DNA from: Eledone cirrhosa
Taxonomy: Eukaryota
DNA length: 64,000 bases
Assembly (NCBI GenBank): GCA_964016885.1
Contig: OZ024741.1
Span: 362,824,001 to 362,888,000 of the forward strand
Direction of reading: 5' to 3'
Shown here: in pieces, positions 33,601-39,600 of the stretch
Layout of the letters: each line of letters starts with the position of its first letter
How positions within the stretch are numbered: position 1 is the first letter of the stretch
Program-made: the position numbers and the translations under genes
The notes under the pieces: model-generated
What the model saw: only the letters and a program-made list of their open reading frames with translations
The model's database searches: none
Told to the model about the DNA's origin: nothing

Positions 33601-36600
33601 TTCTTATAGATGACAAAAGTGAGCCTAGTTTACGAGTATAAGCTAAGCCAGATTACAGCAACATGAAGTATTGGGCTAGAGAAAAATTGGGGCCCCAGGT
33701 ACATAAATGTAGGTCTACACATAAAATGGTACTGAGATTCCAGTATCGATCCATTCCGACCAAAAAAGTTGGAGAACCTCTAGCCTAGTGGCTAGGGTGT
33801 TAGACTCACAATCATAAGGTCAATGGTTTGATCCCTGGACCAGGCAGCATATTGTGTTTTTGAGCAAGATGCTTCATTTTATGTTACTCCAGTCCTCTTA
33901 CCTAACAAAAACAAAACAAAACAAAAACAACATGCTGGCAATCACTATTTTCGTGATTGGGTTGGAGCCCATATTAAAACATACACTTGCTGGTGGCCAA
34001 TTAAACCTACATAGGTGTGAACTGTAACAAGATGGGTGATGCTATGTTGAAGTTAACTTAGAATATAGGACATAAATAACAAACTAGAATATAACAAATA
34101 AAGTAAGTGCGAGTCTGTTTTAAGAAATAAGAATCATCATTTTAAATTTGCTTTTCCATGCTCATATGGTTAGACGGGTCTTCTCCGCACAGTTTGCCTC
34201 AACTCGTATCCCTTTGTTATCTCCTCTGTGAATGAATCTTTCAGAACGAACATTTCCTCTAACTATTACATCTTAAAACCAAACAACATTGCTCTAAATT
34301 TATTTATTTTTAAATGAAAATATGTATTAACTGTATATTACTAAAATGCAATATATATGAGAGATAGAACAATTCAGTTCTGAATAAAACTATTGCTAAA
34401 ACTCTTATAGTCTATTAGAGTTTATACAGTTATAAATATATGTTGATATAATGCTAGCATCAGTTCTCCTTCCTTCTTAATGTTTAATACAATTTATTAT
34501 ATATCTCTTCCAAATTTGGTATCAATATTTAAATATTTAACTCTTAACATCTGGTAATGATTCAGTAGAAAATATCTAAATATGGGTATAATTTAAATGT
34601 TTATAGTATCTTTACGTGTAAACAGATTGTGAAAATTTGCAGTATTAGAGTAAAGACTTTAATTTTTAATGTGAACGTCTTTTTAATGTAGTTCCTTGCA
34701 GTACATGACGTTAAGAGTTAATATATATGATTCGTTTCTCCCCTCTATATGATTGTATATTAATCTGTTCCATTTTACTTTTTACATTTTATATTTCTTA
34801 ATAATGAAAACTTCTAAATTCCAGCCAAGTCATTGGTGTCCCCTAATTTCTTTTTCACTTTGATTTCTTTTCCTCAAAAATCAATACAGTTATCCCCTCT
34901 CTCTTCCCGTTTTCTCTTTAAAATTACTGTCTAGTTGACCATATTTAGGTCAATGAAATGTTACTGTGCTATATTTCCACAGAAATATTCTCAACTGATG
35001 GAAGACTTTTTACAAGATGACCACGACCATGAAGTGTCCGTTGTGTCCCTCTCTGTACAAATCTTTACCCTAACCAGTCTGGTACGTTAATCAGGAAAGC
35101 ACATGGCAGTCTCTCTATGCAGTTGCATAAACATTATCAATTACCTGAGCATAAATCACAGCCAAATCATCAACTTTATTGTACTTCAGTGAGACTCGAT
35201 AGCTTCTTCATTACATTAGATTATCAACTTGCACATGAACTAGATTAGTGTTGGAAGTAGGTGTATATAGTTACTGTGACAATTTTATCAAGTTATTTAA
35301 CTCTTTTGCTACTAAACTGTCTGAAAACAGCCCTGTTCTATGACACAAACCTGTTTATTTTAAAGTGTTTAAATTTACTTTTTAAAAAAAACCTTGCATC
35401 ATAATTTTACATTTAAGTTATATTTCAAACACCAACTTAATAATGAGAAAGTTAGTTATTTTACTAAATCCCTCCAAATTCTTGATTATTTTCAAAATTA
35501 TTTGGAAGATCATAGGCAGTATTTTTTATTAGAAATAGAGCAATAAAAGTATTAAATGAAATGTTACTTTTGGTAGATCTCTTAAAAGTAGTAGAGAATT
35601 GATTTCCTCAGATAGCTCAAGTGTATTACCTTTGGATAAATATAAATATATTTTAAACAAACTTTGTTTTATACAGATTTTGTTCATAGCCGAATGCAAT
35701 GAATTCTTGCATAATATAGCTTATTTTCTCTTGTATAGTTTATTTTCACTAAGTCTTGTATAGCAGTTGTTAAAATTGTCTTCACATTAGTACTGCAACT
35801 GATTGCTAAAACGAACAAGTAAATGGTTATGGGGTTACAGGTATCACAGCTTCAGTCTTGGTTTCTTGGTTATATATATATATATATATATATATATATT
35901 GTTTGCACTTTATTGCAATGAATGTAATGCTTGTTGGGGGCTTGACTATAAGGCAAATTCCATCAAATATTACATCAAGATATTACAAGACATTCATGAT
36001 TGATTTACCTTGTTTACTTCTAGATGAGTCAGTTTTTTTTTTAAAAGGCATGAAAAGATGCATGTGACTTATCTCCCAAATCTTGCTTTGTGCTTGAAAT
36101 ATTAACTGATAACATCCTATAACGATTTAAAAGAAAATATCTAAAATGGGTTTGTTAATGTAAATGTTTGTACTGTTTTTACTATTGGACAGATTATTGT
36201 GAACATTTGCTATATTAGAGTGAAGACTTCAATTTAGAATGTAAACCTGGCATAGTGCTATTTTGTACTTTTCAAAATATGACTTGCTAATAAAGTTTCA
36301 TACAATACAAGATGTTAAAAGTTGAATAATGAAGCCATAATAAGGACATATACACAAGTATATACAATAGTTTTTGTAATAATTCTTTATTATTTGAGTG
36401 AAAATGTACAAAACTAATGTGTTCTGCTTATTACAAACATTTTCTAATTGTTTCCTTTACATTTCATTATAAAATGATGGAAAAAAGGCATATCTTCAGT
36501 CAGCTTTTTTAATTATAATAATAATAATAATAATAATAATAATGAAATTATTGTGTAAAGTGCTCAGGTGCACTACAACTCGTCAAGAAAGTACATAGAA

Positions 36601-39600
36601 TAATACACAAATGTCAGGGAAGTACATGTGTGTATGTGTTAGCTGTAGTGTTGGCGGATCTCGGGAAGCATGGAGGCCTTAAAGGATGCAGTGTCTCGAC
36701 AGCTAACAACTGATGCAGGTAGTTTGTTCCATGCTTCAGCAACTCTGAGCGTGAAAAAATGTTTCCGAAAGTCATGGGAACTGTGCTGTTTTCTTACTTT
36801 GTGGGCATGTCCACGTGTGTTAGACACATGGAAATCGAAAAGGCACTCAGGGTTGTTGTTGGCAACATGGTTAACAATTTTGTGGGTGTTTACCAAGTCA
36901 GTTGCCAGGCGTCGGAGCTTCAATGAATCCATGCCCAGGGAAGCAAGGCGCTCAGAGTATGGTAGATGCCTGATGGAGGGTATTCGCTTGGTTGCACGTC
37001 TCTGAACAGTTTCCAGGCGGTCAATGTCCTGAGCAAGATAGGGGTTCCAGACTGGTGATGCAAATTCTAAGTGTGGTCGCACCATAGCTGTATACAGCCT
37101 TAAATAGATATCTGGAGAGCGGCTGACAAAGGTCTTGCTGAGTGATGCTAAGACACCCTCGGCCCTCTTGACAATTTTAGAGACGTGCCTCGCCCAACGC
37201 AAATCGCTGCTGACCGTAATGCCCAGGTCACGTTCACAGGAAGACTTCTTGATATTTATCTAAGTTTACATGTGATATTTGTTCACAGCAATATTTTAAT
37301 GAAGATTTCATTGTTTTCTGGAAGTTTCAATGGTTGAAATATTACTTGCTTTAAATAATCTTTAGTTCTTGCTTATAAATTACATGCTGGAAAAAAATAT
37401 CAAAATCAAAATTTGCAAAGTTACTGAGAATATTCAATTCATGGATATTTTGTTTATTTATATACTTTTACTGTTATTAACCCTTTTGAAACTAAATCAC
37501 CTGAAACCAACCCTGGTTGTATGGTACTAAACTGTTTATTTTAATATGCTTATATTTATCTAAAAACCTTCCATCCTAATTTTATGCAAGAACCTTTACT
37601 ACTTATGCTCTAAATAACAATTTAATAATAAAAATGCTACATTACTTTAAACACCTTCAAATCTGTGATTATTTTCAAAATTATTTAAAAATTAATATAT
37701 AGTGTATTTCATGAGAAATACGGTAACAAAAGGGTTAAACTTCTTAAAGCTTTTAGAACATATTTTCTTTGTTATAATTTTCCAAACAAAATAAGTTATT
37801 AAAGAATTGAAACAATTAAAAAATTTATTGGGAAAAAAAAAAAAAAAAAAAAAAAAGGAAATTGTTTGTCCATGGCAGCACCACAAAATACTATAGCTGC
37901 ATGAATAATTGCTTTTATAATAATAGCATAAGTATTTGCGTTATCATTTTTTAAAAGCAAATATTTTGTAATTTTATAGCAGTTGTCATATTTGTTGATA
38001 TCAATAATTTTGAGAAAATAAATAGAATAATGTATCTCATTGAACTTAGTAAATATTCTCCCGTGTGTAATAGTTTTTAATAGTTTTATAAGAACACAAC
38101 AAGCATTTTAAGGCAAAGGTTGACCTTGTGGGTCTTATCACATGGAGACCTTTCTGAAGCAAAGTTTTTTTCAGCTGGCTGCCCATCCTACCACCAACCC
38201 TTTTAGTTTTCTCTTACAACATTCAGAGATATGGTATACTTCTTTTGAACTAGATATACATAGTTTCACTGCTGTACATTTTTAAAAAATATGCTTTAGT
38301 GAAACATTGGTTTATAAAAAAATTAAATTAACCTTTTTGATACAAAATTGCTTATTTTAAACTGTTTATATTTATTTAAAAACCTTCCATCATAATTTTA
38401 TGTAAGAACCTTCAAGTTGTGCTCCAAACACAAACTTAATAAGGAAAAAATTAGTTATATTACTAAATCCTTCCAAATTCTTGATTATTTTCAATATTCA
38501 AAAATTATGGGCACTGTATTTCATTAGAAATAGGTTAATGAAAGAGTTAAATACGAAATTAAAAAAATACCTTTATCTAATTTACATGTTCATCTATTAG
38601 TTTTTCCTAATGATATATGCACACACTATTTTCAGCTGCTTTCAAATTTAAAAACTTTGATAGAAACTAATGTAATCATTTAGATCAGGGACCCCCAATC
38701 TTTTTAGATCACCATGGAATTTTTTGTCCCTTATCAACCTTAGCCATGTACAAAAATAAGGAAATAATTCAGTAAACAATATAAAATAGTCATTAAAGAC
38801 TAATTATATATAAATCAGAAATAGGTATAAGCAAGTTAGCTGTATTTTAATGTATTATTTTATGCATTTCCATTTCTTATATATATGTCAGGTTTTGGTC
38901 CAAATGGTCAATCCTTTGGCTGGTCTCATTGACAACTGGGGGGTGGATACCGATTACTTTTGGAAGTTCTGCTCTAGAGTATCTATCACTCCATCAGCCA
39001 GTAGGATACTGACAACTTTGTGTAGTCACTGTAGTTACAATGTTCATGGAAAATATATAATGTATACAATAAAATCAAAATGCTCACAGATTCACATTTG
39101 TCTCACTATTCCTTCCCAGAAAGTCCTATTTATTCCTTAGGTAGACTTATTGAACGAGGAAGGCAGTGTGTGGTAGGGGTGGTCAATATCGACTTAGGTA
39201 TTGTACAGGTGGAAAAGTAAAGTTGATAATTTTGGTTGTTATCTATGTTCTGTGTTGTATTTGATTTATGAAGGTGCAAAAGACTGCTATGTGTAAAATA
39301 TTTTTATTGCTGTTTCTTTTGATTTTCTTGTTTCTTATTTTAGCACTATGCTGTACTTATGCAGAACTTTATCAAGGACGATCATTTACGATCTGTTTCC
39401 ATTATCTCTGATTCCCTTCAGATTTTCACAGCTCCTAAGGTGGTAGGTTCTTTCTACTGCCATCTCATTCTTTAGCAGTGTTTTACATCTAACGGAACTG
39501 TCTGAACCTTTGTGTTTTTTTTTTCTTTTTGTTTTAATGCTGTTTTCATTCCCAACATTATGCAATATATGCTGTGAATAATATCTTTAAAAGATCTTGG

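Follow-up and report, generated by a model that had tools for sequence, protein, structure and literature searches.

We analysed a 64,000-nucleotide (nt) stretch of the Eledone cirrhosa genome (GenBank assembly GCA_964016885.1, contig OZ024741.1, positions 362,824,001 to 362,888,000 of the forward strand; hereafter the window, whose own numbering is used throughout), in which lies the greater part of the first half of a cephalopod gene for an N-degron ubiquitin ligase of the UBR1/2 type. About 30 exons were placed in the window by tblastn, and the UBR-box exon is 92% identical to that of Octopus sinensis UBR2. Our subject is a pair of neighbouring exons in this gene, 11a and 11b, and a long-range RNA duplex predicted to form between the two ends of the intron that separates them. 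Exon numbers count from the exon at about 12396.

30936..30986, + strand: constitutive exon upstream of the pair (exon 10), placed by tblastn of P0004/P0007
34983..35081, + strand: exon 11a, 99 nt, 33 amino acids, phase 0
35082..39343, + strand: intron between 11a and 11b, 4262 nt
39344..39442, + strand: exon 11b, 99 nt, 33 amino acids, phase 0
42201..42270, + strand: constitutive exon downstream of the pair (exon 12), placed by tblastn

Exons 11a and 11b are homologous, equal in length and phase, and align to the same 33 residues, as tandem duplicated exons do; the segment corresponds to about residues 395-427 of human UBR1, counted on the alignment, and the available part of the yeast Ubr1 structure paper names no function for it. 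Among the 21 cephalopod proteins that cover the site, out of 26 listed, 14 carry 11a, 6 carry 11b, one carries both and none carries neither, where the counts come from gene models and assembled contigs and are not junction counts or expression levels. The two exons occur together in 0 of 14 named octopod protein models and in 0 of the 5 proteins covering the site that are known from Logan contigs only. Since each exon is 99 nt long, a multiple of three, no filter by frameshift or nonsense-mediated decay separates them. The donors of both exons are GT and their acceptors AG, with a poorer pyrimidine tract at 11a than at 11b. None of the donors of exons 10, 11a and 11b fits the minor-class (U12) consensus; they are ordinary GT donors, which argues against an incompatibility between U2 and U12 splice sites.

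The ends of the intron that separates the two exons are complementary to each other, in two arms.

35099..35180, + strand: arm A of the duplex, starting 17 nt after the 11a donor
39216..39294, + strand: arm B of the duplex, ending 49 nt before 11b

This complementarity is real. A first, sequence-only reading had described it as a chain of paired segments, nearly all of which we recovered: 35099-35112 pairs with 39281-39294 at 14 of 14 positions, two of them G-U (35099-39294 and 35105-39288), and the UGCA/UGCA (35118-21/39275-78) and CAUAAA/UUUAUG (35126-31/39265-70) extensions lie in register. The distances of 17 and 49 nt to the splice sites are exact, and 66 unpaired nt would be left with the helix closed. 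The inner helix at 35147-35178, for which 29 of 32 pairs had been claimed, is present with its two G-U pairs and has 28 of 32 in the minimum-energy fold, the twenty-ninth being drawable with one extra A-U. Folded in silico as a whole, the 4460 nt that span 11a, the intron and 11b retain 64 pairs, from 35099-39294 to 35180-39216.

The arm duplex has a computed energy of -69.5 kcal/mol, as against -34.1 ± 4.3 for 1000 dinucleotide shuffles, none of which was as low. Scanned over the 64 kb in 100-nt windows and 25-nt steps, the arms are each other's best partners, the next best for arm A reaching -57.1 at 7126. Because the arm pair had been picked after it was seen, one fixed test, pairing 110 nt on the donor side with 140 nt on the acceptor side, was run on 28 of the 29 introns of the gene (a 244-nt intron was left out), with intron boundaries picked by script, a few of which may be off. 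The 11a-11b intron scored -72.7 and the other 27 introns -23.7 ± 7.1, with a lowest value of -35.5; it also ranked first of 899 combinations of donor and acceptor sides, the second standing at -61.3. Taken singly, the arms fold weakly (-10 and -13 kcal/mol). Its predicted energy runs from -70 kcal/mol at 37 C to -111 at 10 C when the two are paired, and a thermal switch, which we considered, was rejected because the duplex persists over that range.

That the arms resemble none of the repeats in the window was also borne out: each matches itself alone, both there and in its own genome, although a single match is no proof of rarity. Read depth over arm B in relatives is low, which fits a single copy and speaks against an inverted, transposon-derived duplex. 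No Rfam family was found within 30900-42400. Three nucleotides before the long helix lies a small structure of another kind.

35078..35095, + strand: predicted local hairpin over the 11a donor, 6 bp, weak (-4.0 kcal/mol)

In the same segment, 9 nt into the intron, there is a YTRAY match with its A at 35090.

Contigs of public sequencing runs from four other organisms (X5, X7, X10 and X13) were aligned to 35040-39380. Both arms are conserved in X13 and arm B in X7 (39194-39378). Among the matches listed in that interval, the non-repeat pieces of X13 are 35043-35190 and 39214-39378, which stop, on their inner sides, about 10 nt or less from the inner end of the helix (35180/39216). At 87% likeness the arms were left uncovered by X5 and X10, and arm A by X7, where missing cover is no proof of loss; a pattern search for arm B in metagenome contigs gave 0 matches. 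A further conserved stretch lies inside the loop.

37916..38003, + strand: third conserved stretch, single-copy, with a predicted local hairpin (z -2.6); its ends are inferred from distances to contig ends

The X7 cover near this stretch is on a contig of the same depth as its arm-B contig. We also observed a 26-nt AT-rich motif common to 37912-37937, after 11a, and 39696-39722, after 11b, the latter copy sitting within a stretch conserved in X7 (39641-39812).

The changes between species fall in a pattern that favours pairing. Differences were listed for 10 of 14 positions on the arm-A side and 12 of 19 on the arm-B side of X13, and for 11 of 17 in X7. When the X13 arms are rebuilt from the listed differences, the duplex reaches -64.3, whereas random sets of as many changes average -47.2 ± 6.7 and 1.15% of 2000 such sets are as low, and arm B of X7 combined with arm A of the window reaches -75.8 against -51.4 ± 7.3 (2 of 2000 as low). 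In X13 the adjacent mismatches at 35134-36 / 39261-59 become three Watson-Crick pairs and the 35125-39271 mismatch becomes G-U, while three wobble pairs (G-U or U-G) turn into Watson-Crick pairs and one C-G into U-G; in X7 the bulged A39264 is deleted. Of 75 paired positions in X13, 11 carry a listed difference, as do 10 of 42 unpaired ones; in X7 the figures are 7 of 52 and 6 of 19. As to covariation of the arms, named in the sequence-only reading as a check, the listed changes mostly keep or add pairs but are one-sided, and they include no clean two-sided compensatory pair in the one relative with both arms. Together these comparisons support selection on the pairing, short of formal covariation.

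Against this background, chance complementarity, or the functionless remains of an inverted repeat, is scarcely credible and largely refuted. The shuffles, the standing of one intron among 28, the single-copy arms, the conservation bounded by the helix and the pair-preserving changes all speak against it; the lack of a clean compensatory pair and the small number of informative relatives, two, are what can be said for it.

The exon pair itself is old. We looked up 10 other lophotrochozoan clusters, from chiton, gastropods, bivalves and the brachiopod Lingula, and all 10 have both exon types; several include double-exon models, among them RefSeq models of Mercenaria (clam), Ostrea (oyster) and Physella (snail). 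Jawed-vertebrate UBR2 also has a duplicated 33-residue exon at the position of the mollusc pair (P0087, P0095, P0096, P0101, P0104, P0110 and P0125), and there the mutually exclusive pair is reported to respond to temperature in hamster cells (bioRxiv 10.1101/863175). In a tree of the exons, built on 33 columns with an unsettled bootstrap, both vertebrate exons fell together and separate from those of molluscs; all three groupings put to approximately unbiased tests survived (p 0.61, 0.31 and 0.56), and 33 columns cannot separate one origin from two.

How the helix might act is suggested by where the predicted branch point of 11b falls.

39319..39323, + strand: best branch-point candidate for 11b, a YTRAY match with its A at 39322 (-22), predicted, outside the helix

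A weaker candidate, also predicted and also outside the helix, has its A at 39306 (-38). A distance of less than 50 nt between donor and branch point is the criterion for steric interference at vertebrate exon pairs (PMC5740500, PMC7969005). Along the linear transcript the classical form of such interference does not apply, the intron being 4262 nt long and the AG-free zone before the 11b acceptor 59 nt. With the loop closed, the unpaired distance from the 11a donor to the predicted branch point would be 17 + 28 = 45 nt, or 29 nt with the weaker candidate, and since either value lies below the limit of about 50 nt, U1 and U2 would be expected to exclude each other.

The sequence of events that we propose runs as follows. 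The helix would form once arm B has been transcribed, by prediction about 50 nt before the 11b acceptor appears, and the closed 4-kb loop would bring the 11a donor too near the 11b branch point, below the vertebrate limit. Binding of U1 at the 11a donor and of U2 at the 11b branch point would then be mutually exclusive, and either the 11a donor would join exon 12 or exon 10 would join 11b. The helix would enforce the either-or, and splice-site strength and proteins would set the ratio. That a fixed helix of about 64 bp serves in this way as a virtual short intron, sterically blocking the joining of 11a to 11b, is the reading we prefer, and we hold it tentatively, at slightly less than an even chance. 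It retains the core of the sequence-only proposal, that the stem prevents 11a-11b joining, with which the alternative exon use in the models and the collapsed geometry agree; the switching and branch-point masking that had been attached to it were not supported.

The duplex had been put forward as an exclusivity switch. A scan of the 64-kb window, a search for perfect stems in 30987-42200 and the mutual pairing of 15 chosen stretches turned up nothing that would compete for arm A or arm B, which favours a fixed clamp over a switch; both arms also lie in one intron, so the helix loops out no exon, and together with the missing competitor this sets it apart from docking and selector systems. The branch point of 11b had likewise been suggested to be masked by the stem, a suggestion that is not supported in this species, since the sole YTRAY match in the last 70 nt (A at 39322) is outside the helix. 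A competing system could still be imagined in which an alternative partner, or pairing of U2 at the base of the helix, opens it, giving branch-point masking or a true switch. In both X7 and X13 the two outermost pairs are lost and 39293-39299, at the helix base, forms two overlapping branch-like motifs; the 26-nt motif shared by 37912-37937 and 39696-39722 looks selector-like; and R3-R4 of ATE1 masks a 3' splice site from inside the same intron (PMC7797038). We consider such a system distinctly unlikely, given that no convincing partner was found for the motif (in 24640-47000) or for the arms, that the local folds of the arms are so weak, and that the best branch candidate of the window is outside the helix. 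For a motif common to 35315 and 39496, the interval 30980-42300 contains no exact complement. Pairing of 32844-32972 with 37900-38010, which came next after the arms among 105 pairs (z -3.8, 30 shuffles each), involves AU-rich sequence and was set aside as doubtful.

RNA editing offers another possible role for so long a duplex. The sequence-only reading had A-C mismatches letting ADAR tune the choice of exon; modelled as G, the three positions each shift 5.5-6.4 of the 69.5 kcal/mol, toward stability, which is too little for on/off control. A helix kept mainly as a substrate or recruiter of ADAR, with little direct effect on exon choice, would be in keeping with a long imperfect duplex containing three A-C positions, with the absence of any change at A35154-C39243 among the listed X13 differences, and with the extensive RNA editing established in coleoids (PMC10278661). 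We judge it very improbable, since neither exon lies in the long helix and no recoding site is formed.

More weight belongs to a bridge of the FGFR2 type, the main rival to a steric block. Here the helix would bring protein sites near the 11a donor and the 11b acceptor, activate 11a and repress 11b, and set the ratio or the tissue choice, exclusivity coming from other factors. The IAS2-ISAR stem of FGFR2 activates IIIb and represses IIIc (PMC2471395, PMC12772994), and the duplex at 11a/11b is, like it, a conserved stem without competitors at a mutually exclusive pair. R2-R5 of ATE1 and ISRE1/2 of SCN9A shift a ratio and keep exclusivity, and 11a is found in 14 of 21 cephalopod proteins and 11b in 6 of 21 despite the poorer pyrimidine tract of 11a, although such model counts are not expression levels. 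No GCATG (Fox site) occurs in 35082-36047 or 37904-40089, and the helix is far longer than a bridge needs and ends right at both splice regions. On this evidence a bridge seems unlikely as the main function.

Several observations weigh against a steric block by a conserved helix. The helix and the branch point are predictions, and the rarity of the 11a-11b junction is read from models and contigs, among which the cuttlefish gene model P0019 has both exons. The 50-nt limit is a vertebrate one that may not be that of cephalopods, and the 45 nt come near it once the helix width is added. Pairing of intron ends promotes splicing in yeast RPS17B (PMC2536676) and in zebrafish AC/GT introns (PMC4691745), and the long-range pairings of ATE1 R2-R5 (PMC7797038) and SCN9A ISRE1/2 (PMC12772994) set a ratio, not exclusivity. 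As to conservation, the informative relatives are just two, one of them for a single arm, and differences remain unlisted at 4 of 14 (X13 arm-A side), 7 of 19 (X13 arm-B side) and 6 of 17 positions (X7); placed randomly into the inner helix, the 7 unlisted X13 differences bring the energy to -54.2 ± 4.9, still far from the shuffled background. X13 loses 8 of the pairs of the window (the 2 outermost, 4 in the weak middle, and those at 39246 and 39278), and none of the pairs has changed on each side while being Watson-Crick in the two species alike. The flanks of alternative exons are also conserved for other reasons, and X7 aligns as well at 39443-39517 and before exon 12.

The yeast and zebrafish precedents (PMC2536676, PMC4691745) raise the opposite possibility, that the helix defines the intron and helps to join 11a to 11b, yielding a real double-exon isoform. 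Models with both exons are found in cuttlefish, limpet, mussel, clam, oyster, pearl oyster, snail and several vertebrates. A helix of such strength should make the joined form common, and neither the 14 named octopod models nor the 5 Logan-contig proteins contain it, so that a promoting role appears very improbable.

A duplicated exon pair of CaMKII in the same genome (L022:3383-3309 and L020:8268-8194, G000:C1, - strand), with an intron of about 15 kb, provided a possible second case. Its inner helix (donor +94..140, acceptor -211..-164) reaches -59.6, as low as none of 1000 shuffles, and was not bettered by any of 7926 windows over 200 kb; its outer helix (from donor +42 and acceptor -39) reaches -35.3, with 2 of 1000 shuffles as low and at least 8 background windows better. 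The helix windows were picked after the fold had been seen, and under the fixed 110 x 140 test the pair falls short of significance (26 of 300 shuffles; 3 of 100 at 200 x 220), so recurrence of the intron-end clamp at this pair is suggested, not shown. The unpaired length would be about 79 nt if the outer helix forms, and the steric geometry at CaMKII would hang on that weaker helix. The CaMKII and UBR2 arms share low-complexity matches only. A CSK exon pair taken up as a third test case was discarded when the match proved to be another SH2 gene. The broader idea that octopods enforce either-or splicing by RNA clamps that make virtual short introns, with UBR2 and CaMKII as two instances of unrelated sequence, is a doubtful one for the present.

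Several other elements lie in the window. The loop of the 11a-11b intron contains a fragment of a long interspersed nuclear element (LINE; about 36640-37260, - strand) and AT-rich repeats. Copies of a 317-nt inverted repeat, 99% complementary and 24.5 kb apart, lie at 11656-11972 and 36524-36840; the second is inside the duplex loop and, within the pre-mRNA, might pair with the first. Two long frames for LINE-type reverse transcriptase, of 764 and 275 amino acids with one stop between them, occupy 25444-28563 on the - strand, in the intron before exon 10, and shorter copies occur at 13900, 20650 and 61300. The strongest short stem of the region, a perfect 20-bp stem between 31783-31802 and 31943-31962 before 11a, probably represents the ends of a small transposon. 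Farther downstream, the 58 nt at 56497-56554 are identical to the acceptor and the larger part of the exon at 56119-56176 but have no donor; they are probably a recent local duplication or pseudo-exon.

The conserved long-range RNA element at this old alternative exon pair is real, and it would add a variant to the ways in which RNA structure controls mutually exclusive splicing. Our literature search, which left most subscription journals and all supplements outside it, found no paper on the element in the UBR2 11a/11b intron (the exon lists of PMC5740500 and PMC8052449 may include vertebrate UBR2 and a paired region), and none on a steric block of splicing made by a hairpin; a mention of UBR2 in scASfind proved unrelated to the exon pair. 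Of 629 human exon clusters, 484 are left to other mechanisms (PMC5740500), and for most in-frame duplicated exon pairs with long introns the reason why they are not joined is unknown; a steric clamp made by folding, if true, would be a simple and testable answer. Virtual short introns, if they exist, would provide exclusivity without a competing structure, a short intron or a frameshift, and the UBR2 element is small, bounded and open to clear compensatory designs. The pair, shared by molluscs, a brachiopod and vertebrate UBR2, swaps 33 residues of an N-degron ubiquitin ligase, which carries the same question to human UBR2.

Among the closest known systems is FGFR2, whose IAS2-ISAR stem lies inside the intron between IIIb and IIIc and is likewise a non-competing intronic stem at a mutually exclusive pair. 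The FGFR2 stem acts with Fox sites, and IIIb and IIIc have a frameshift filter, whereas the UBR2 exons are both multiples of three; the predicted UBR2 helix has about 64 pairs, spans 4.1 kb and leaves 17 and 49 nt to the splice sites. Vertebrate UBR2 has its duplicated exon at the same protein position as the octopus pair, and the available text of the hamster study (bioRxiv 10.1101/863175) does not mention RNA structure. Steric pairs such as OGDH 4a/4b resemble UBR2 in the proposed block, a donor-to-branch distance below about 50 nt (PMC7969005, PMC5740500); there the short distance is linear, owing to a short intron or a distant branch point, and restricts intron size, whereas at UBR2 it would be made by folding in an intron grown to 4.3 kb that contains transposon fragments. 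Human ATE1 7a/7b (R1-R5) also has long-range pairing at duplicated exons, with R3-R4 within the intervening intron (PMC7797038), but ATE1 owes its exclusivity to helices that compete with one another and occlude 3' splice sites, whereas at UBR2 the search gave no competitor and the helix leaves the pyrimidine tract free. The invertebrate systems Dscam1, 14-3-3zeta, Mhc and srp combine conserved intronic pairing with mutually exclusive splicing (PMC6071210, PMC4691838, PMC11802352). Three of these, Dscam1, 14-3-3 and Mhc, had been invoked as precedents in the sequence-only reading; the docking, selector and bidirectional pairings in such systems cross introns, loop out an exon and compete, a different architecture from a helix within one intron. 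The same topology, in which the ends of one intron pair, is found in yeast RPS17B and the zebrafish (AC)m-(GT)n introns (PMC2536676, PMC4691745), where pairing promotes splicing of the intron, whereas the bridged intron of UBR2 is apparently not removed on its own. A blocking clamp, if true, would invert the splicing-promoting role known for intron-end pairing in yeast and fish.

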